This document shows positions 627 to 48,722 of a stretch of DNA of 64,000 nt, in pieces. Positions within the stretch are counted from its first letter, which is position 1. The number at the start of each line of letters is the position of its first letter. The notes under the pieces are model-generated. The model had not been told where the DNA came from and made no database searches. It saw nothing but the letters and a program-made list of their open reading frames with translations. The stretch is from a bacterium (GTDB taxonomy: Bacteria; UBA8248; JACPRG01; G963555815). The stretch is taken from NCBI GenBank assembly GCA_965218795.1, contig OZ244653.1, forward strand, positions 2,592,001 through 2,656,000, written 5' to 3'. The position numbers and the translations under genes are program-made.

Positions 627-2618
627 TCAAACACCGGCCGCGGCCCTCTCCGGCCGTCCGCGCCCGTGGCGAGACCATTGAACCAGGAAGAGCCCTCCTC
701 CCACAACGGCCCCGGGAATCTGCCAGTATAGATTGGGCCCGATCATACCAATACCCGCGGCCAAGAACAGGATACGCCGGATGGGGTCCAGATGGACAAA
801 GGCGAAGTTTTGAATCGCCATGGACATGGATATCACTCCGCCCAGAGCAAACACAATTCCGAACGCCACCTTTCCGACCGATCCGATCAAAAGAAGCGAC
901 GGATCGACGACAAACATATAGGGCAGGAGGAAAGCGGGGAGCGCGAGCTTCATCGCTTCAATGGCCGTGGGCATGATGGGTGAGCGGGCAATGGCCGCGG
1001 CCGCGTAACTGGTGGGGGCGGTCGGAGGCGTGATCGCCGAAAATGCGCTGAAGAAGATAACAAAGAGGTGAGCCTGCGGAATCAGAATGTTTTCCGGCAA
1101 ACCCAGACTCTTCATCATCGTAATGAGGGCCGGGATCGCGATGCCGACCTGGATGATGTACGCCGAGGAGAGGGGCAGACCCATCCCCAGCACGATCGCG
1201 GTCAGCATGCAGAGAACCAGCGCGGCGAACAGGTTTCCGCCCGCGATATCGACTAACAGGCTCGAGAATTTCACCGCGACTCCCGTCAAGTCGAATATCC
1301 CGACCATGATGCCGGAGGTGATGATTGCGACGGCAACGATCACCGCCTGAAGGCTTCCCTGAACCAGCGCGTCCCAGATGTTCCGGAGACCCATCCGGTT
1401 CTCCCGTTTCCAGACCTCCAGGATCTCCTCGCGAGTGAGCCGCCCCCCTTTCCTGACCGCGGCTATCACGATATGCATGACCGCCCAGGCCCAGCAGACC
1501 CCGATGATGCCGGTGATGCACCGGACCACCGCGAAACCCGGACTGAACCCCGCGACAAGCAGGTAAACGAGAATGATCAGCGGCAAAGCCAGGTATCCGC
1601 GACTGAGCATGATTCTTTTGAGGCTCGGCAGCTCCTCCTTCGGCACAACCGGAATTTTCTCTTTTACGGCATAGATATGAACCATGATTCCGACGCTGAG
1701 GAAGTAGAGAATCGCGGGGAGAACAATCAGCTTCATGACCCGAGCGTATGGAATCCCCGTGTATTCGGCCATGAGGAAACCTGCAGACGCCATGACGGGC
1801 GGCATGATCAGCCCGCCTGTGGAGGCCGCCGCCTCCACTGCACCCGCCATGTAATCCTTGAATCCGATTTTCTTCATCATGGGGATGCTGAAAGAGCCGG
1901 TGATGACGGCGTTCGCCGTGCTGCTGCCCGATATCGATCCCATCAGCCCGCTCGACAGAACAGCCACCTTCGCCGGTCCTCCCCGGAGGCGACCCGCCAC
2001 CGCCGTGGCAAAGTCGATGGTGAACTGGCCAAATCCCGATTTTTCCAGAAAGGCGCCGAACACGATAAACAAAAAGATGAACGTGGCGGAGATGGCTGTG
2101 GGGAGGGCGAACAGGCCGTCGGGAAGGAAGTACTGGTTATCGATCACGAGGGAGGCCGAATAGCCTCCGTGATGGAATAGCCAGGGCAGATAGGGTCCCA
2201 CGAAGGCATAAGCGAACACCAGAATGGCGAGGGCCATGAGCGGCCATCCGATCACCCGCCGGCAGCATTCCAGGACGACTGCGATGGCCCCGAACGCGAG
2301 GATCTTCTCGTAGACCGCGAAGGTATCGACATGTCCGATATGCTCGATGATCCAGTCGTAGTGATAGAAGATGTATCCCATCGTGGTCCACCAGAAGAGC
2401 AAGAGCAGGATGTCGTGCCAGTGGAGTTTGCTCGACACCCGCTTTTTGGTCACCGCGTACGTCATCAGCGCAATCGTAAACATGAAAGTGACATGGATGA
2501 CCCGGTGGAGATAGGCTTCGGGCTGGCCGAAGAACCCCGTCCAGATATGGTAGAGGGAGCTGGCGACGGCGATAAGGCTCAGGAGGATCCACGCGGGACC
2601 TTCAAGTTTTCTTTGCAC
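627..2618 (-). CDS. TRAP transporter 4TM/12TM fused permease (TAXI-associated)
   Basis: 663 aa hydrophobic; GGPAKVAVLSS, SGSSTANAVITG, EAAASTGGLIMPPVM, SAITPP motifs; GTG start. Confidence 0.95.
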   Translation of the reverse strand: MQRKLEGPAWILLSLIAVASSLYHIWTGFFGQPEAYLHRVIHVTFMFTIALMTYAVTKKRVSSKLHWHDILLLLFWWTTMGYIFYHYDWIIEHIGHVDTFAVYEKILAFGAIAVVLECCRRVIGWPLMALAILVFAYAFVGPYLPWLFHHGGYSASLVIDNQYFLPDGLFALPTAISATFIFLFIVFGAFLEKSGFGQFTIDFATAVAGRLRGGPAKVAVLSSGLMGSISGSSTANAVITGSFSIPMMKKIGFKDYMAGAVEAAASTGGLIMPPVMASAGFLMAEYTGIPYARVMKLIVLPAILYFLSVGIMVHIYAVKEKIPVVPKEELPSLKRIMLSRGYLALPLIILVYLLVAGFSPGFAVVRCITGIIGVCWAWAVMHIVIAAVRKGGRLTREEILEVWKRENRMGLRNIWDALVQGSLQAVIVAVAIITSGIMVGIFDLTGVAVKFSSLLVDIAGGNLFAALVLCMLTAIVLGMGLPLSSAYIIQVGIAIPALITMMKSLGLPENILIPQAHLFVIFFSAFSAITPPTAPTSYAAAAIARSPIMPTAIEAMKLALPAFLLPYMFVVDPSLLLIGSVGKVAFGIVFALGGVISMSMAIQNFAFVHLDPIRRILFLAAGIGMIGPNLYWQIPGAVVGGGLFLVQWSRHGRGRPERAAAGV

Positions 2619-2779
2619 CTTCGGCTGCCTTATGGGAATCCAGAATTATTGAGAGCGCCGGGCCGCTATCGTGACCTGCTCATCGATTGATGTGCGGCAG
2701 ACCCCCATCCCGCTAACGTAACAGGCAATTGTCATAAAAACTCCCGCGAGTTTCGCAAATCCGGCACTCAACATCAACC

Positions 2780-2816
2780 AAAATAAAAGGGGACCGGCGC
2801 AGGTGCGCCGATCCCC
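2780..2816 (-). terminator. Rho-independent terminator after TAXI gene
   Basis: Hairpin ggggaccggcgca/tgcgccgatcccc followed by T-rich run on minus strand. Confidence 0.6.
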
Positions 2817-2845
2817 TCGCTGCCGAAGCGACTGCCCGGGGTTCT

Positions 2846-3802
2846 TTACAGAGCTCCGACCTCCTTCAGGTACTTCGTCAGGCCGGGATGACGCTTGGCG
2901 CCCAGGTCCTGCGCCGCGGCCTTGGCGTCCACCCTCTTGAAGTTCGGGTTGACCTTCCTCATGTAGTCGATGTTCTTATACATGGCCTTGGCCATTTTAT
3001 AGACCAGGTTGGTCGAAACCTTCGCGCTGGTGACGACGATCTGGTAGGTCTGTACGACCTGTACGTCTTTCGGCTGATCGTAAAACTGCTTTTCCAATGT
3101 CACCGGAACGAGGGCCGGCTGAACAGAGCGAATCTTCCGAACTGTGTCATTATCGAAGTTGAGAATCCGAATCGGCTTATGCGCCGCCAACTGGATGAGG
3201 GGAGCATACTGCCTCTCCCCGGGTCCCAGGTAAACGTCGATATGGCCGTCTTTCATCTGCGAAACCGCATCGTTGAAGCCCAGGTGCAACACCTTGGGAA
3301 AATCTTTGTAGGTCATTCCAAGGCCCTGGAGCATCTGCTTGTTCAACGCCTGGGCGGAAAACCGCTTGGGCATCGCATTGATCCGCTTTCCCTTGATTTG
3401 GGACCATTCAGTAATGCCGGAATCCGCCCAGACCGCCCAGACCATCATCTGGTTGTACTGAACCGCCGCGATTCTCAGGTCCTCGGTTTTCTTCCCCTTG
3501 AAGGGCCCTTTGTGCTTGAGAGCGTCGGCAACCGTCGAAGCAAAGGTCAGGCCCATCTGGATCTTGCCGCTTATCGAGTTCAGGGCGTTGGCCACGCCGC
3601 CGCCGATATCGAGCGTTACCTGGTCGCCGTAGTCGTCCTTCATCAGCTTCTGGATGGCGGTTCCGATGGGATACCAGGCGCCGCCGGGCTTCGAGACGCC
3701 GAACTTGAAGCTCTCCGCAGAAGCCGACGGAACCGTCCCGACCGCTCCGAGGAGAAGCGCCGCACAGAATGCGGCCAGACCGATTTTGAAAAACCTTCTC
3801 AT
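2846..3802 (-). CDS. TAXI-family TRAP solute-binding protein
   Basis: Signal peptide MRRFFKIGLAAF, GGAWYPIG, GGGVAN, C-terminal HPG; GAAGGAG RBS before ATG 3802. Confidence 0.92.
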   Translation of the reverse strand: MRRFFKIGLAAFCAALLLGAVGTVPSASAESFKFGVSKPGGAWYPIGTAIQKLMKDDYGDQVTLDIGGGVANALNSISGKIQMGLTFASTVADALKHKGPFKGKKTEDLRIAAVQYNQMMVWAVWADSGITEWSQIKGKRINAMPKRFSAQALNKQMLQGLGMTYKDFPKVLHLGFNDAVSQMKDGHIDVYLGPGERQYAPLIQLAAHKPIRILNFDNDTVRKIRSVQPALVPVTLEKQFYDQPKDVQVVQTYQIVVTSAKVSTNLVYKMAKAMYKNIDYMRKVNPNFKRVDAKAAAQDLGAKRHPGLTKYLKEVGAL

Positions 3803-10397: not shown

Positions 10398-11570
10398 ATG
10401 GCCGCGCAGATCAAGATCAACAAACGAAACGTCGACGCCATCAGGGGCGACGGCTCGGACCGGTTCTACTGGGATGCCGACCTCCCAGGATTCGGCCTGC
10501 GCGTCCGCGCCTCGGGACGCAAGTACTTTGTCGCCCAGTTCCGCGCCAACGGCCGCCTCAGGCGCATGACGCTCGGCCCTCACGGCGCCGTCACGCCCGA
10601 GGCCGCGCGGCGGCGTGCCATGGCCGTGATCTCCGAGGCCAAGGGCGGCGGAGACCCGGCCGCTCAGCGGGACGCAGACCGCAAGGCAGCCACCATGAAG
10701 GTGCTCGGAGAGCGGTTCCTCGAAGAACACGTCTCGGTCCACTGCAAGCCGAGAACGGCCTACGAATACCGGCGTTCCGCGGAGCTGTTCATCGAACCGA
10801 AGATCGGTGCCCGCAAGGTGACCGAAATCCAGAGGAGCGACATCGCCGAATTGCACCACAGCATGCGGAAGACGCCCTACCAGGCCAACCGGACGCTGGG
10901 TGTGCTGTCGAAAATGTTCAACCTGGCGGAGATGTGGGGGATGCGGCCCGACGGTTCGAACCCGTGCCTGCACATCAAGCGCTACAAGGAGGAGAAGCGC
11001 GAGCGGTTCCTGAGCGCGGAAGAGTTCTCCCGGCTCGGGCGGGTGCTCGATGAGATGCTGGAGGACGGCTCGGAGACCCGTTCAGCGGTGGCGGCGCTCC
11101 GGTTGCTGATGCTCACCGGCTGTCGGCTGTCGGAGATCCAGAAGCTGCGCTGGGAGCATGTGGACCTGGAAGCGAACGAGTTACGGTTGCCCGATACCAA
11201 GACCGGCGGGCGGGCGGTTCCGCTGGCGCCCTCGGCGGTGCGACTGCTGGCTAGACTCCCCCGCGACGAGGAAAATCCCTGGGTGATCGCGGGCCGCAAG
11301 CCGGGCTCGCATCGCACCGATCTTCAGCACCCCTGGCGGCACATCCGGGCGCGTGCTGGACTCGACGGTGTGCGGATCCATGACCTCCGCCATTCGTTCG
11401 CTTCTCGTGCGCTGGCGCTTGGCGAGGGCCTGCCAATGATCGGAAAATTGTTGGGGCACACGCAGGTGCAGACCACGGCCCGTTACGCCCATCTCGCCCG
11501 CGACACCGTGAAGGCGTCTGCCGCCCGCATCGGGGACAGCATTGATCGGGATCTTGATGCGACAGAATGA
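10398..11570 (+). CDS. Tyrosine recombinase/integrase with N-terminal arm-binding domain
   Basis: WDADLPGFGLRV arm domain; LTGCRLSE, DTKTG, IHDLRHSFAS, LLGH, TTARYAH (R-K-H-R-H-Y intact). Confidence 0.95.
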   Translation: MAAQIKINKRNVDAIRGDGSDRFYWDADLPGFGLRVRASGRKYFVAQFRANGRLRRMTLGPHGAVTPEAARRRAMAVISEAKGGGDPAAQRDADRKAATMKVLGERFLEEHVSVHCKPRTAYEYRRSAELFIEPKIGARKVTEIQRSDIAELHHSMRKTPYQANRTLGVLSKMFNLAEMWGMRPDGSNPCLHIKRYKEEKRERFLSAEEFSRLGRVLDEMLEDGSETRSAVAALRLLMLTGCRLSEIQKLRWEHVDLEANELRLPDTKTGGRAVPLAPSAVRLLARLPRDEENPWVIAGRKPGSHRTDLQHPWRHIRARAGLDGVRIHDLRHSFASRALALGEGLPMIGKLLGHTQVQTTARYAHLARDTVKASAARIGDSIDRDLDATE

Positions 11571-11624
11571 TGTGTAGAAAGACCTGCGACAGCGAGGACG
11601 GAACGGTCTCCCCGACAAATACAA

Positions 11625-11935
11625 CTTAGATGCATCGAGCCGTTTTCATCGGCCGTAGAATCCTATTATCATATTGATATTATTGGATAATACACATACT
11701 TCCTGCTCTCGTCCGGAACCTGCCTTCTACAGTCTGTCATCAAAATGAAAGCGGATCCGTTAAAAATCCTGCGCATCCCGGCGAGTTCCTATCGGACCGT
11801 TGCACCTCCGTCCTCCAAAGTCCGACCCCGCAACAACTCGCTTACGGTTATGCTCCGGCACCCCGCAACGTTCATTCAGGAACCAGCGGTCCACGCCCCA
11901 TGACGGCGCCCGATTGGCGCCCGCGGCGCAGTCGA
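11625..11935 (+). repeat. Dispersed integrase-tail non-coding repeat, copy A
   Basis: Shares tatcatattgatattattggataa, atcaaaatgaaagcggat, cggaccgtt, cgcaacaactcgct blocks with copies at ~32.3, 34.1 and 46.8/47.9 kb. Confidence 0.85.
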
Positions 11936-12182
11936 CTACAGCGACGATGATCTTCTGAGCGGGGTGATCGCCGGCAGTCCGTTTCCAAGACGCGGATTAT
12001 CGTAACCAGCAGCCCCATCGAGTCTGGATGCTCCGCTTCTCCCGGTTCAACCTCTCACGTTCCGCCCGTCGTCACGGCATTCCGGTCCAGCCATTACGCC
12101 TCATCGTGTGGAGTTACTTAGAGAATTAGTAGCCGTTGCTGGTCTCGTATGAGAGCGGCATATACGCTGGACACTGCAGTCG

Positions 12183-12418: not shown

Positions 12419-15400
12419 ATGATGGTCCCAACGATATTCGAAACCTGCCGGCCACGCGCCGATGTTCTCAAGGGAGCGATTACCGAATCCGACTTCGCGG
12501 CTGATCTGGCCCAAGTCATCATCGGCAAGGGGAATGAGGAATATCTCGACCCGGTTCGGTTCTTCGCCAACACCTATCCCACGAGGGGCCTCAAGAACCT
12601 GCTCGCCAATGTGTGCCGGCGGCTGACCGGCGCGGGCGGTGAAGTCGCGTCGATTTTCCGTCTCGACACCTCCTACGGCGGCGGCAAGACCCACGGTCTG
12701 ATCGCGTTGTGCCACGCCGCACGCGGCATGAAGGGCGTGTCGAACGTCTCGGAGTTTGTCGATCCTTCTATTCTGCCGGAAGGCCGCGTCCGCATCGCCG
12801 CCTTCGATGGCGAGAACGCGGATCCGGCCAATGGTCGCAGGATGGAAGAAGGTCTTCTCGCGTACACCCCCTGGGGCGAGATCGCTTACGCGCTTGCCGG
12901 CAAGGATGGGTATGAGCGGGTGCGCAAGAGCGACGAAAGCCGCATCGCGCCCGGCGCCGAGACCCTGCGCGAGTTGTTCGGCGGCGAGCCGACCCTGATC
13001 CTGCTCGACGAGTTGTCGGTTTACCTGCGCAAGGTACGCAACCTCGAGGATGCCCGCGATCAGTTGACGGCGTTCCTGACCTCGTTGTTCAAGGCCGTCG
13101 AAAGCGCGCCTGAGGCCGCCCTCGTCTATACGTTAGCGATCGGCAAGGACGGACGTGCAACCGACGCCTATAACGAAGAAAACCAGTTTATCGCCGATCA
13201 CATGGCGGAAGCGGAGAGCGTCTCGGCGCGCAAGGCGACGCTGTTGAATCCCACCGAGGAAGACGAGACGGTTCAGGTGCTCCGTCGCCGCCTGTTCGAA
13301 TCCATTGACGAGGCGAAGATTCCGGCGGTTACGGATGCCTACCGGGCGCTTTGGGGAGCCAACGCGGAGTCCCTGGCGGATGATGCCGCCCGGCCCGAGA
13401 CCGTGGAGACCTTCAGATCGAGTTATCCTCTGCACCCGGAAGTTCTGGAAACCCTGACGGGCAAGACCGCGACGCTCGGCAATTTTCAGCGGGTGCGCGG
13501 CATGCTGCGGCTGCTGGCGCGCACGATCTCGCATCTTTGGGAGGAAAAGCCCGCGGACGCGGCCTCGATTCACCTTCACCATATCGATCCGGGCCATGAG
13601 CCGATCCGACAGGAGATCGTGACGCGTCTCGGGCAGTCCGCCTACGTGCCGGCCATCACCAACGATGTCGCCGCCGGATCGGTCGAAAAGAAGGCGCTGG
13701 CGCAGGAGATCGATGCCGCCCATCACGGCGGCCTGCCGCCGTATGCGGTCTACGTCGCCCGCACCATCTTCATGCACACGCTCGCCTTCAACGATCCGCT
13801 CAAGGGGATTTCGCCGGAGCTGTTGCGTTATTCGGTCCTCGGTCCCACGACGGACATCAGCTTTATCGAGGAAGCGCGCAAGAAGTTCATCGCCGAGTCC
13901 GCCTACCTTGACGACCGCCCCGTCGCGCCGATGCGCTTTCTCGTCGAGGCCAATCTGCGTCAGATTATCCGACGCGAGGAACGCCACGTCGATGCCGGGG
14001 AAGCGCGCGCCCACCTCAACGACCGCATCCGCCAGATATTCGGAGGCAAGACGTTCGAGACGGTATCTTTCCCCGGCGGGCCGTTCGACGTTCCCGACGA
14101 GGTCGGCGACGGCCGGCCGAAGCTCGTCGTCCTGGCCTATGACGGCGTGACCATCGGCGGATCCGTCGAGAACGTGCCTGAGTTGATCGAGCGCATTTAC
14201 GCCCGGAAAGGCTCGGAAGGCTCGGCCTTGCGGGTGCTTCGAAACAATGTGGCGTTCGTGGTCGCGGAGGACGCCCGCAAGGAGGAGATGCGCCGAAAGA
14301 CCGATTATCGTTTGGCGCTGCGGGAACTGAAAAAGCCTGAACGCCTCATCGATCTGGCGGAGCATCAGCAAGACCTGGTGCGCGAGATGGAGGCCCGGTC
14401 CGATCAGGAGCTCGCGATCGCCATTCAACAGTGCTACCGGCACGTTTTCTACCCGTCCCGCAACCGGGTCGGCGCAAGCGACGTCGATCTGACCCACTCG
14501 GCGATCGACATCCATTCCACCTCCGATCAGCCCGGCGCAGGTCAGCAACAGATTGTGCGGGCATTACGAGACCTCAAGAAACTGCGCCTGTCCGAGGACG
14601 AACCGGATTCCCCCGCCTATGTGCGCGATCGTACACCGCTCAAAAGGGGTCAAATCACCACGCTGGTGCTGCGCGACGAGTTCCGGCGCGATCCGGCCCT
14701 GCCCATCCTGATCGGCAACGACATCTTCATTCGCGGAGTACGGCGCGGCATCGAGCAGGGCGAATACGTCTACAAACGCGGAGATCTGTTGTTCGGACCG
14801 GGCGACCCGGCAGCCGGCATCATGATCGATGAGCAATCCGTGGTCTTCACCATGGCGTATGCGAAGAATGCCGGCATCTGGCCCCGGAAAAGGCCGGGAG
14901 AATCCGAGCAGCCGGCCCTGGAGGGCGAAAAGACAGACCAACCCGGCGAGCCGTCCCGCGGCGGACGAAGCGCGGGCTCCGGCGCGGAGCCGGTCGGTCG
15001 CCATTCTATCAGAGAGGCGCCAGGCTCGTTTACCGCCGAGGGCGTTCTTAAAGAGGCGCTGGTGAAGTTGTGGGAACAGGCCCGGTTCCAGAAAGTCGAG
15101 GCGATAGGCACCCTCGCAATCCGCATGTTCGAGGCGGGGGACGCCTTCCGGCTTCTCGGCGCCGTGGGCGCCGTATCCGGGGCGGACAAGAGCGTCGAGA
15201 TCACGGGCGGCTATGAGACCCGCGAGGGTGGATCGTTCGAGTTGGAGTTCCGAGGGCCGGTATCGGACGCCCAGCCGGTGAAGGAGTTTTTGGAGCCGCA
15301 GCTTCGCGACGCAAGTTCCAAGAACCTGGAGGCGGGGTTCGAGTTGACCTTTGCCGAGGGTCTTTCCATGCATGGCGACGCCGCGGAGAAGCTCACTGAA

Positions 15401-15463
15401 AGCCTTGCCCGGTTCGCGAGCGGCGCGGCCTACGTGTCGGCCACGGCCGAGGTCAAGACTTGA
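12419..15463 (+). CDS. DUF499-family AAA+ ATPase (BrxC-related)
   Basis: FAADL, FFANTYPTRGL, Walker A LDTSYGGGKTH, TPWGEIA, Walker B LILLDE, SYPLHPE, FQRVRGMLR. Confidence 0.9.
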   Translation: MMVPTIFETCRPRADVLKGAITESDFAADLAQVIIGKGNEEYLDPVRFFANTYPTRGLKNLLANVCRRLTGAGGEVASIFRLDTSYGGGKTHGLIALCHAARGMKGVSNVSEFVDPSILPEGRVRIAAFDGENADPANGRRMEEGLLAYTPWGEIAYALAGKDGYERVRKSDESRIAPGAETLRELFGGEPTLILLDELSVYLRKVRNLEDARDQLTAFLTSLFKAVESAPEAALVYTLAIGKDGRATDAYNEENQFIADHMAEAESVSARKATLLNPTEEDETVQVLRRRLFESIDEAKIPAVTDAYRALWGANAESLADDAARPETVETFRSSYPLHPEVLETLTGKTATLGNFQRVRGMLRLLARTISHLWEEKPADAASIHLHHIDPGHEPIRQEIVTRLGQSAYVPAITNDVAAGSVEKKALAQEIDAAHHGGLPPYAVYVARTIFMHTLAFNDPLKGISPELLRYSVLGPTTDISFIEEARKKFIAESAYLDDRPVAPMRFLVEANLRQIIRREERHVDAGEARAHLNDRIRQIFGGKTFETVSFPGGPFDVPDEVGDGRPKLVVLAYDGVTIGGSVENVPELIERIYARKGSEGSALRVLRNNVAFVVAEDARKEEMRRKTDYRLALRELKKPERLIDLAEHQQDLVREMEARSDQELAIAIQQCYRHVFYPSRNRVGASDVDLTHSAIDIHSTSDQPGAGQQQIVRALRDLKKLRLSEDEPDSPAYVRDRTPLKRGQITTLVLRDEFRRDPALPILIGNDIFIRGVRRGIEQGEYVYKRGDLLFGPGDPAAGIMIDEQSVVFTMAYAKNAGIWPRKRPGESEQPALEGEKTDQPGEPSRGGRSAGSGAEPVGRHSIREAPGSFTAEGVLKEALVKLWEQARFQKVEAIGTLAIRMFEAGDAFRLLGAVGAVSGADKSVEITGGYETREGGSFELEFRGPVSDAQPVKEFLEPQLRDASSKNLEAGFELTFAEGLSMHGDAAEKLTESLARFASGAAYVSATAEVKT

Positions 15464-32236: not shown

Positions 32237-32294
32237 AACTGCGCGCCTTCACGTGGCGAGGTGGCCTTTGCCGGTAATATATATAGATTCATTC

Positions 32295-32525
32295 TCAAGA
32301 GCCGTGAGATCTCGTTATCATATTGATATTATTGGATAAGTCATGTTTTTCCTGCTCTTCTCTGGAACCCGCATTCCATAGTCCGTAATCAAAATGAAAG
32401 CGGATTCGTTAAAACACACGCGCATCCAGAGGTGTTCCTGGCGGACCGTTACACCTTCACCCTAAAATAAAAAGTCCCACTCCGCAACAACTCGCTTATG
32501 GTTAAGTCCGGTGCCCGGTAACGCC
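32295..32525 (+). repeat. Dispersed integrase-tail repeat, copy B
   Basis: tatcatattgatattattggataa...atcaaaatgaaagcggattcgttaaaa...cgcaacaactcgcttatggtta. Confidence 0.85.
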
Positions 32526-46800: not shown

Positions 46801-46814
46801 TATGTGAGTAAGGA

Positions 46815-46969
46815 CGATCTTTCCAGCCGTGAAATCCTACTATCCTATTGATATTATTGGATAATATACAATCTTCCTGCTCTCGCTCAGAACTCGACTT
46901 CTATATTCCGTAATCAAAATGAAAGCGGATTCGTTAAAACTCCTGCGCATCCCGGCGCGTTCCTGTCGG
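46815..46969 (+). repeat. Dispersed integrase-tail repeat, copy D left part
   Basis: tattgatattattggataa...atcaaaatgaaagcggattcgttaaaa...gttcctgtcgg; continues at 47927. Confidence 0.85.
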
Positions 46970-47804
46970 GCCGAGTAGGCGGGGGCATTGCTGCGCCCCG
47001 CCCCTCACAGAGCCGAGCGTGCGCGATTGACGCACTCGGTTCCTCACCTGACAGGTTCGCTCAAGAAGGTTGTCCTTGATCCGCAGGTCGAGGAGTGTCC
47101 GGAGGTGGGAACCGTTCCGGATGTCTCCTCGCCTGTTCGGCTATCCACTGCTGTTTCGTGTACGTGTTGGTGGAACTCAGCGTTTCCTCCAGCGTTTCCC
47201 ATCAGTGGGTCTGTACAGGTGACGCCCCGCTTTCCTCCAGCGGGTCCCGATGGCCTCGGTTCCCCGCCTTCAGCGGTACTATCAGGGCGCTACGACTTCC
47301 TGCCCTTGCTTGTCCTTCGGCTTATTGTTTTCGCCAGCCGGCTCCGCGGGCGCCTGCCGGGGTTCGTGTCCGCCCTGGGGCGCTCCCGCCGCCGTGCAGG
47401 CCCGACGACGGGCCGGGGTCTTTGTTGTTCACGCTGGCCGTCCCCTTTCCAGCGTTCTTGCCCACGGGCAAGGGCAGGATCTCCCAGGTTCCCTGGCGAT
47501 CCATCCCGTGACTTTGCGCCGGTCCACGACCCCGGACGACCCGTCGCGCCTCGCCGTTAGCGGCGCTTCCGGTGCTGCCCCCGGCCGATTAACACCGAAG
47601 GCGTCGTCATTCAGACCGATTTCGAGGCTGCGCGACGCTTCATCACCTGCTGTCTACGCTTCACGACGGGCGTTGCCGCACGCCATGCAAGACTCGCTTC
47701 CGGCTGGCGGGTGCGCCTTTGCCGGGCGGGAGTCGAACCCGCTGGGTCGCTTCGAGAGGTTTCAGGTCATCTCATCCTCCTCTCCAGGGCTTCGCCTGGC
47801 GCAA
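46970..47804 (-). ncRNA. ORF-less group II intron (RT gene almost entirely deleted)
   Basis: 5' TTGCGCCAGGCGAAGCCCTGG at 47804; DV GGAACCGAGTGCGTCAATCGCGCACGCTCGGCTC (47043-47010); DVI ending CCTACTCGG(C); RT N-terminal stub LSSTNTYTKQQWIAEQARRHPER; 3' end ambiguous by 1 nt. Confidence 0.88.
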
Positions 47805-47926
47805 TAACCATTCAGTCGTGGGGTGAGATGGTCGCTGGGGCCGGAGGCAGTTGTTGATATTCCGCGGCGTAGTCGGTTTGGGCCGGTACTTTCCTGACCG
47901 CCATCAGCGCGTGACTGAATGCTTAC
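46970..47926. mobile_element. IS66-like MITE (about 123 bp without the intron) with 8-bp target-site duplication
   Basis: cctgtcgg at 46962-46969 and 47927-47934; ends G|TAACCATTCAGTC (split by intron) and GACTGAATGCTTAC. Confidence 0.75.
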
Positions 47927-48066
47927 CCTGTCGGACCGTTGCACCTCCGTCCTGCAAAGTCTGACCGCGCAACAACTCGCTCACGGTTATGCTCCGGCGC
48001 CCCGCAACGTTCTTTCAGGAACCACCCGCCCACGCCCCATGACGGCGCCCGATTGGCACCCGCAGC
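47927..48066 (+). repeat. Dispersed integrase-tail repeat, copy D right part
   Basis: cggaccgttgcacctccgtcc...cgcaacaactcgct...ccacgccccatgacggcgcccgattggc matches ~11792-11925. Confidence 0.88.
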
Positions 48067-48069
48067 TTA

Positions 48070-48722
48070 GTCTGGAGTGAGCTTCATCGTCACGAACCTG
48101 ACCGTTTGCCCTGAGGACGTGGTCCACTTCTACAATCAGCGAGGCACGGCGGAGCAGTGGATCAAGGAGGGCAAGCACGCGTTGAACTGGACGCGGCTGT
48201 CCTGTCACGGCTTTGAAGAAAACCAGGTTCGCTTGCAACTGTTTGCCTTGGCGTACAACCTGGCCAACTTCCTGCGGCGGCTGGCATTGCCGAGAGCGGT
48301 GAAGCACTGGTCGCTGACGACACTTCGGGAGAAGCTGATCAAGATTGGGGCCAAGGTGGTTGCCCACGCCCGGTACACCACCTTCCAGTTGGCTGAGGTG
48401 GCGGTGTCGCGGCAACTGTTCAGGGCAATTCTTGAGCGAATCCGACGGTTGTGGTTGCCGCCTCCGGTTCCGGACACCGGATAACGGAGCCGCTAGCCAG
48501 GAAGCTAAGTGACGTGGTGGAGACGGGGGATCAGTCTGTGCTGACCCGTAGTCGGGGCGCGTTAAGGGCAAGAATTCCAAGGAGTTTTGACCCGTGATGA
48601 CCCTCAGGCATACAAACGAACTGAAGCTCCCCGAAAAAGTCTTGACATTGTGCTCAAAGTCTGACCCGATAGAAATACGTCTTGTCAGAAGTATGATTTG
48701 GCAGGTCATCTGGGAAATCCCG
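48070..48722 (+). mobile_element. IS1380-family transposase 3' fragment with right end
   Basis: FIVTNL, FYNQRGTAEQWIKEGK, NQVRLQL, LAYNL, LREKLIKIGAKVV; end catctgggaaatcccg. Confidence 0.85.

Follow-up and report, generated by a model that had tools for sequence, protein, structure and literature searches.

Introduction

Group II introns that home into the repeats of insertion sequences (ISs) and group II introns lacking an open reading frame (ORF) both have precedents, and the intron lineage described here is of this already known kind. It was found in a 64,000-nt stretch of DNA (hereafter the window) from a bacterial genome, G000, which consists of a single 5.17-Mb contig (C1). In this window, an ORF-less group II intron lies within an IS66-type miniature inverted-repeat transposable element (MITE), which in turn lies within a dispersed repeat, and the locus is very probably the fossil of three site-specific mobile elements stacked in one another.

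Among the closest described systems, RmInt2 has the inverted repeat of ISRm17 as its natural target, with two sites per element, one for each replication strand, which is like the arrangement here (PMC4615759). Recognition through exon-binding sites 2 and 1 (EBS2 and EBS1) was tested for RmInt2, and the protein of RmInt1, the founder of its group, is without DNA-binding or endonuclease domains (PMC4615759). The two systems differ in that ISRm17 is an ISNCY-family element (PMC10194956), whereas the host here is IS66, and in that RmInt2 carries its own gene (PMC4615759), whereas the window intron is ORF-less and lies in a MITE, one base from the tip. Sr.md.I1 of Sinorhizobium medicae is a group II intron in an ORF annotated as an IS66 transposase, not in a terminal repeat as here (PMC4615759). 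A 72%-identical relative of the window intron on a Bradyrhizobium plasmid lies under a coding sequence annotated as 'IS66 family transposase'.

The TeI3 introns of Thermosynechococcus elongatus are ORF-less, derive from one ancestral deletion and retain N- and C-terminal gene remnants, similar to the shared deletion blocks found here; they keep good pairing between the EBSs and the intron-binding sites (IBSs) and are mobilised in trans by related intron proteins (PMC2882425). They live beside their driver proteins, whereas G000 encodes none, and they diversified their targets, whereas the window lineage keeps one, the IS66 terminal repeat (PMC2882425). In the literature searched, with incomplete journal coverage and supplements unseen, no account was found of an intron in, or an intron lineage aimed at, IS66 terminal repeats.

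Layered structure of the locus

When 46970-47926 and one CCTGTCGG were removed, the remaining sequence aligned contiguously with copy A of the dispersed repeat (window 11634-11933) and with further repeat copies. This bears out the sequence-only reading, in which excision was said to restore an uninterrupted repeat like copy A. Without the intron, the insert is a 123-bp MITE with the ends GTAACCATTCAGTC... and ...GACTGAATGCTTAC, flanked by CCTGTCGG at 46962-46969 and 47927-47934. Ends of IS66 elements begin with GTAA, and the terminal inverted repeats of the MITE, GTAACCATTCAGTC and GTAAGCATTCAGTC, start in the same way; on comparing both ends, the GTAA inverted repeats that had been claimed for the insert were seen once the intron was removed. 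The sizes given earlier, an intron of ~835 nt and an 8-bp duplication, are possible, and were corrected to 834-835 nt and 8 or 7 bp because there is a 1-nt ambiguity in the run of G at 46968-46970. All four observed elements, namely the intron, the loss of its gene, the MITE and the excision, were confirmed at the locus. A chance origin of the layers is excluded because of the Rfam E-values and because each layer recurs elsewhere. The features are as follows.

46808-46969, plus strand: left part of the ~0.5-kb dispersed repeat (copy C), to the hot spot ...GCGTTCCTGTCGG; repeat family from BLAST to ~21 loci and copy alignment
46829-46857, plus strand: promoter-like site GTGAAA-17-TATTAT with TG, from a consensus scan, in the conserved AT-rich core of the repeat
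46962-46969, plus strand: left target-site duplication CCTGTCGG, or CCTGTCG (46962-46968) if 46969 is the MITE tip; recurs at 47927-47934
46970-47804, minus strand: ORF-less group II intron of 835 nt (834 if 46970 is the terminal base of the MITE), from Rfam and full-length alignments
46970-47044, minus strand: domains V and VI with a bulged branch-point A (CCUA*CUCGG); RF00029, 35.2 bits
47112-47201, minus strand: remnant of the intron-encoded protein, first 30 codons, from tblastn
47520-47735, minus strand: domain 1 core; RF02005, 114.8 bits
47586-47591, minus strand: EBS1 UAAUCG, located in a domain 1 hairpin loop, from pairing with exon -6 to -1
47614-47619, minus strand: EBS2 UCGGUC, located in a domain 1 internal loop, from pairing with exon -13 to -8
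47805-47926, no strand assigned: body of the 123-bp IS66-type MITE, from similarity to other copies; the 123rd base (the tip beside the intron) is 46969 or 46970
47805-47810 and 47812-47817, within the MITE body, minus strand: IBS1 and IBS2, from pairing with EBS1 and EBS2
47927-47934, plus strand: right target-site duplication CCTGTCGG, by direct reading
47927-48072, plus strand: dispersed repeat (copy C), right part, with 90% identity to copy A (11788-11933); a transposase fragment cuts it off at 48072

Target site and exon pairing

The intron lies between the last two bases of the 123-bp MITE. For the comparison of 5' exons, 13 intron copies were used (the window copy and 12 others) from nine genomes, namely G000 and eight of another genus; copy L008, which is cut by its contig end, was kept outside this count. 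All 13 share the context ...ATCACC(8 nt)GAAYnnTTA^UUGCG, one base inside the IS66-type terminal repeat, and the visible 3' junctions (8 of 8) read ...CGG^CC, followed by unrelated sequence. Related introns occupy either end of the element, in full-length IS66 as well as in MITEs, and in L007 the intron lies in the opposite end of a MITE homologous to that of the window. The earlier proposal of an intron that targets IS66 termini is strongly supported by the identical terminal-repeat position of these 13 copies.

Both EBSs pair with the terminal repeat of the MITE, as was to be checked according to the sequence-only reading. EBS1 (UAAUCG, 47591-47586) forms six pairs, two of them G-U, with exon positions -6 to -1 (UGGUUA), while EBS2 (UCGGUC, 47619-47614) forms six pairs, one of them G-U, with exon positions -13 to -8 (GACUGA) and perfectly matches the GACCGA of relatives. 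With free registers, both pairings were satisfied by 1217 of 200000 random 14-mers (0.6%). The assignment of the EBS loop is backed by a second intron in G000, in which the homologous loop, UCCCAG, is perfectly complementary to the exon CUGGGA. Moreover, EBS1 covaries with the exon in L011 (UAAACG with CGUUUA) and L009 (UAACCA with CGGUUA); one or two mismatches are present in L006, L013 and L019.

Two introns in the related genome G033 differ at only 2 of 808 bases, and their hosts are a full-length IS66 element and a MITE with a different repeat variant. Such near-identical introns in unlike hosts indicate that the intron moves on its own. When the strict target pattern was searched in five genomes of genus g7, which belongs to another family, nine occupied and 35 empty ends were found (44 in total), and the reversed-pattern control gave 0; about 1 in 5 ends is intron-occupied in the genomes sampled.

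In L023 (reverse complement, ~1370-1380), the tip of the MITE end opposite the resident intron reads G-CCGGGTAA-TAACCG; the eight bases match the last seven and the first one of the intron and resemble the footprint of a lost intron. The second G000 intron (G000:C1:3969743-3970890; L001 1468-2615) is a group II intron without an RT (reverse transcriptase) gene and with the canonical start GUGCGCC. It matched RF02005 at 156.9 bits and, 100 nt further, gave a separate RF02003 (D1D4-4) match at 53 bits; these matches suggest nested or tandem pieces, and a domain V-like hairpin was noted by eye near 3970820.

The intron ribozyme and its ends

The group II fold put forward for the insert is present. 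On the minus strand, RF02005 (group-II-D1D4-6) matched over all 225 model positions at 47735 to 47520 (114.8 bits, E 8.9e-32); it was the sole Rfam match in the window above its gathering score, which is 49. RF00029 (domains V-VI) matched at 47044 to 46970 with an E-value of 1.2e-4; its 35.2 bits are below the gathering score of 40, and the whole model was matched in the expected place and on the expected strand. A domain V on the plus strand, first read by eye, was ruled out by the Rfam alignment and the relatives, which place the domain on the minus strand with an AAC triad. In full-length alignments with copies from other genomes, the window intron is 87-89% identical to those without an ORF and, over the ribozyme part, 90-93% identical to those that contain one.

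The 5' end at 47804 reads UUGCGCC, and the 3' end, at 46970 or 46971, reads ...CCUACUCGG(C). The 834-nt reading (end ...CGG) comes from the comparison with the intact MITE and from an 8-bp duplication. In the 835-nt reading, the 3' sequence is ...CCUACUCGGC, ending ...GGC, with the MITE tip at 46969 and a 7-bp duplication. Three observations favour the latter: a C follows CGG in 8 of 8 copies despite differing flanks, the RF00029 alignment extends to 46970, with domain VI followed by the usual two bases, and the full-length IS66 element of G033 has an 8-bp duplication, AATGCTCC, only if its intron ends ...GGC. Spacers of 7 nt between tandem elements are also present. From these alignments, 835 nt rather than 834 is preferred as the probable intron length. 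On the minus strand, intron removal is predicted to leave the exon junction ...GAAUGGUUA^C(C)CGACAGG.

The canonical domain V triad of group II introns is AGC (or CGC). The window copy and all relatives aligned have an AAC triad, opposite C or G, and the intron ends UUGCG...GC; the AAC triad and the ...CGGC end are shared with a Rhizobium plasmid intron that has an annotated ltrA gene and whose domains V-VI score 45.7 bits. As these traits are clade-wide and include copies with intact genes, non-canonical ends and triad need not mean decay. Domain VI of the window copy carries a compensatory change (UGAG/CUCG compared with UGGG/CCCG in relatives). Group II introns have an interaction between their first and second-last nucleotides, and U1 together with the second-last G would be a co-variation, if those two positions interact here. 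The consensus ends of group II introns are GUGYG..AY, and UHB.I2 (group IIB, 5'-UUGCG..GU-3') has the same U at position 1 and the same second-last G as the window intron (PMC7923331). Unlike the window intron, UHB.I2 adjoins an integron attC site and carries a gene (PMC7923331).

Public sequence runs (n = 4) were examined as contigs from metagenome-like samples, in which gaps in cover were not counted as absence. Contigs of public RNA libraries gave partial cover of the intron at 90-98% identity, for which relatives or DNA are possible sources, so that neither transcription nor splicing of the window copy can be read from them. Joints skipping 834, 835 or 836 bases were also present in the public runs; these have just 22 bases on one side, and paralogous intron-free MITEs fit them equally.

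Loss of the intron gene

A full-length relative of the window intron (~2.0 kb; ~2.03-kb intron) encodes a 449-aa RT/maturase (TIGR04416, 355 bits; RVT_1, 120 bits), in which no endonuclease domain match was found. In a tblastn search with the 449-aa intron protein of L007, only residues 1-30 matched at the locus (window 47201-47112, 96.7% identity), and the rest of the 5.17-Mb genome gave no further meaningful match. The two small ORFs inside the intron had no Pfam match. The window intron is a deletion-derived ORF-less group II intron, given this protein remnant and the full-length relative with the gene.

All four ORF-less copies compared (window, L005, L006 and L023) lack the same two blocks relative to the ~2.03-kb intron. 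The lost blocks correspond to about positions 698-1143 and 1185-1930 of the full-length intron, with an island of ~41 nt kept between them, and L023, which shares the deletion blocks, is just 72% identical. The shared blocks point to one ancestral deletion, after which the ORF-less copies would have spread.

In two genomes of the other genus (L024 408-1823, plus strand; L012 2629-3666, minus strand), the RT gene of the full-length intron is interrupted by a serine-recombinase zinc-ribbon sequence (PF13408). In L024, the open frame passes from the PF13408 domain into the C-terminal part of RVT_1.

The IS66-type MITE and its parent element

Related IS66 and MITE ends, the presence of which had been left to be checked, occur in G000 and in relatives. 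The 123-bp MITE is too small for a protein, and three complete copies and further ends are present in G000. One intron-free copy (C1:1973682-1973804) is 95.8% identical over 120 bp (C1:1973682-1973801) and has an unambiguous 8-bp duplication, CCCTGGCG; another (C1:166701-166823) is 85.6% identical over C1:166708-166818. The duplication is also 8 bp at the full-length element of G033 if its intron ends ...GGC, and 8 or 7 bp in the window.

The full-length element of G033 (L024:1910-5241) matches DDE_Tnp_IS66 at 181.8 bits, has the ends GTAACCGTTCGGCGACAGGGTGAT and carries the intron in its terminal repeat. It is the only IS66-family element for which the GTAA end was confirmed here, and 16-17 of its first 30 bases are the same in the end of the MITE. 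Its second ORF (L024, G033:C1:2287500-2294500, at 1992-2858, minus strand) encodes a 289-aa protein with a match to DruA (PF14236, 129.5 bits) of the Druantia defence system, and the usual TnpA/TnpB were not found in the two long ORFs scanned. Since the second ORF matches DruA and not TnpB, the G033 parent is a non-canonical IS66-family element. Decayed tails of the same ORF were noted at G000:C1:2197153-2197693, 1926340-1925819, 2245487-2244944 and 174896-175132.

IS66-type elements or MITEs in head-to-tail tandem, spaced by 7-8 duplicated bases, are present at C1:1926319-1926364 (e.g. 1926319-1926354). Such tandems would be expected from repeated hits on a regenerated target. Like tandems were noted at L009 ~1355-1385, L019 ~1365-1385 and L024 ~1895-1915.

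The dispersed repeat as a landing pad

The ~0.5-kb dispersed repeat is found at ~21 loci in G000, of which 18 reach the hot spot CCCTGTCGG. Seven of these 18 carry an IS66-type end or composite, in both orientations and with one-base offsets. Among 61 related genomes, which include 23 of genus g7 and six of the window's own family, the repeat was found in 22, and in 18 of the 23 of g7; it flanks six of the seven full composites examined from relatives. ISs that target repetitive extragenic palindromes also prefer dispersed intergenic repeats, like this IS66 lineage and its MITEs (Tobes and Pareja 2006, PMC1525189). Unlike the palindromes of that study, the repeat here is ~0.5 kb, has no obvious palindrome and matches no Rfam family (PMC1525189).

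The AT-rich core of the repeat, TATTGATATTATTGG, is conserved among copies. The promoter-like site is putative: one was found by consensus scan, compared with 0.3 expected, on the plus strand and antisense to the intron. The repeat matched no Rfam family and nothing in a plasmid collection, and no clear conserved fold emerged for either strand when 17 copies were folded with RNAalifold. A small ORF starting from the conserved ATGAAAGCG was rejected, being by eye not kept in the other genus.

The repeat is modular (window 11622-12108, 32283-32463 and 46808-48072), many copies end at the hot spot, and the copies are set in mosaics of short repeat families, e.g. a ~60-nt unit with at least 15 copies. 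Copy A directly follows a tyrosine integrase gene, and other repeat copies are not beside integrase paralogues. The surroundings of copy A look island-like, the copy lying between the tyrosine integrase (window 10398-11570, plus strand; many genomic paralogues) and a 1014-aa DUF499 protein (12419-15463, plus strand). At the right end of copy C, the ORF at 48077-48484 (plus strand) is a C-terminal DDE_Tnp_1_4 fragment (profile positions 307-433 of 435, 144 bits) that abuts the truncated repeat.

Distribution and state in this genome

Intron matches were obtained in 15 of the 61 genomes, including G000 and 12 of the 23 of g7; in the window's own family, one of six gave a match, a 109-nt piece. 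A whole-genome RVT_1 profile search of G000 gave 0 matches, while three control genomes gave matches. IS66 transposase is represented in G000 by fragments only, with four decayed pieces of the IS66 element remaining, and an identical homing site at C1:1973781-1973804 is unoccupied. The earlier suggestion that both RT and transposase are needed in trans gains support from these searches. With no RT and only transposase fragments in G000, the composite is stranded and, at present, most likely inert at the DNA level.

The last 173 nt of the intron (172 should 46970 be the MITE tip) recur with 100% identity in a second, truncated composite at C1:1997737-1997909. Here too the junction runs from the repeat through one G to the intron 3' end, in another repeat copy that is 83% identical, and unique DNA lies beyond. 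This copy bears witness to a single recent event that preceded the loss of the helpers, be it homing into a further resident MITE or a move of the whole composite. By GC skew, both G000 copies are co-oriented with fork movement (n = 2, with the skew nearly flat at the window), as is expected for endonuclease-less introns (PMC4615759, PMC5894124).

Discussion

The layered anatomy, the exon pairing, the recurrence of this site among relatives and the lack of both enzymes are findings; the course of events below, with retrohoming as the route of entry, is inferred. The 123-bp host MITE would have inserted earlier at the preferred spot CCCTGTCGG of the repeat, with a 7-8-bp duplication. The innermost element is an ORF-less deletion derivative of an intron lineage with an endonuclease-less RT/maturase. 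The probable retrohoming site of this intron lineage is the terminal inverted repeat of one lineage of the IS66 family, at the outer end of the repeat. The target would be 5'-GACYGAAYGGUUA^C, with the intron placed between the second-last and last transposon bases, and the site would be recognised by the ribozyme through EBS2-IBS2 and EBS1-IBS1 pairing. Because the recognised sequence lies wholly inside the transposon, each element offers two sites whatever its surroundings. The ORF-less intron would need the RT/maturase of a relative, and the MITE would need an IS66 transposase.

Several observations weigh against this stack of three mobile elements. The intron differs from the canonical group II consensus at the 5' end (UUGCG, not GUGYG), at the 3' end (GC, not AY) and in the triad (AAC, not AGC), and the RF00029 score of the window copy is under its gathering score. 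Clear duplications are missing around the composites L007, L009 and L023 in relatives. The recent movement or recombination of the truncated copy is hard to square with an element long dead, except if the loss of the enzymes is itself recent.

Some of these points would suit a dead ribozyme, inert litter from the horizontal transfer of a larger island that never moved in this genome. Integrase and transposase debris around the locus, the lack of an RT in the genome, the unfilled homing site and the rarity of the intron outside the other genus (12 of 23 in g7 compared with the single 109-nt piece in its own family of six) agree with this explanation. It is nevertheless unlikely: the non-canonical traits are clade-wide and occur alongside intact genes and many copies, the window copy has its compensatory change in domain VI, G000 holds a further copy with another flank, and several MITE copies occupy independent sites there in both orientations.

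A second possibility is that the intron is a passenger, the MITE and intron moving as a unit by the IS66 transposase, so that the shared position reflects one ancient insertion, after which composites transposed. The truncated composite, with an identical junction in another repeat copy and identity starting at the junction, and the tandem arrays of element plus intron in G033 are what such movement might leave. Yet with the intron in place, 0.8-2 kb lie between the tip base and the remainder of the terminal repeat, which would leave the transposase without a normal end. Near-identical introns lie in unlike hosts, full-length IS66 and a MITE with a different repeat variant, and at either end, while 35 of the 44 ends matching the strict pattern in five genomes are empty. 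The EBS-IBS covariation is also unexpected of a passive passenger, and this explanation is improbable.

A history in which a full-length IS66 element was the first host of the intron, and later internal deletion of this element gave rise to the MITE, is very improbable. Full-length IS66 elements with a terminal-repeat intron do exist in relatives, and decayed IS66 fragments are present in G000, but the intron-free MITE at C1:1973682-1973804 has the same interior, a more distant one lies at C1:166701, and homologous 123-bp MITEs in another genus carry the intron in the other end. These intron-free and other-end MITEs indicate that the MITE predates the insertion of the window's intron. That the 123-bp segment is a variable internal module of the repeat and not an insertion, as its nearly constant repeat spot in every G000 case might suggest, is hardly credible given the flanking direct duplications, the occurrence in both orientations, the GTAA...TTAC ends shared with a transposase-encoding element, the many repeat copies (most of them) without the segment and, weakly, with 22 bases on the left, a public-run contig joining 46961 to 47927 with one difference in 146 bases of the right flank.

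For annotation, the lesson of the locus is that a ~1-kb 'insert' in a repeat may consist of two non-autonomous elements, one nested in the other, while the genome encodes neither of the helper enzymes. This lineage, in which an AAC triad is combined with U1 and a second-last G, provides material for studying what group II catalysis tolerates. The stack of three mobile elements is, moreover, a comparative example of mobile elements parasitising one another. It is doubtful, though conceivable, that the locus is one case of a chain of specialised parasites conserved in two or more bacterial families, in which a promoter-bearing repeat would receive an IS66 lineage with a DruA-like gene and the MITEs of that lineage, and an intron lineage with co-varied non-canonical ends (U1 and a second-last G) and an AAC triad, its sole homing site at the tip, would cap the transposon end. 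If such a chain is real, the intron, by splitting off the tip base, would be a natural cap that silences the transposon end. A restraint of ISRm2011-2 by RmInt1 has been proposed (PMC5894124), and the present system would allow a test of whether such introns restrain insertion sequences.

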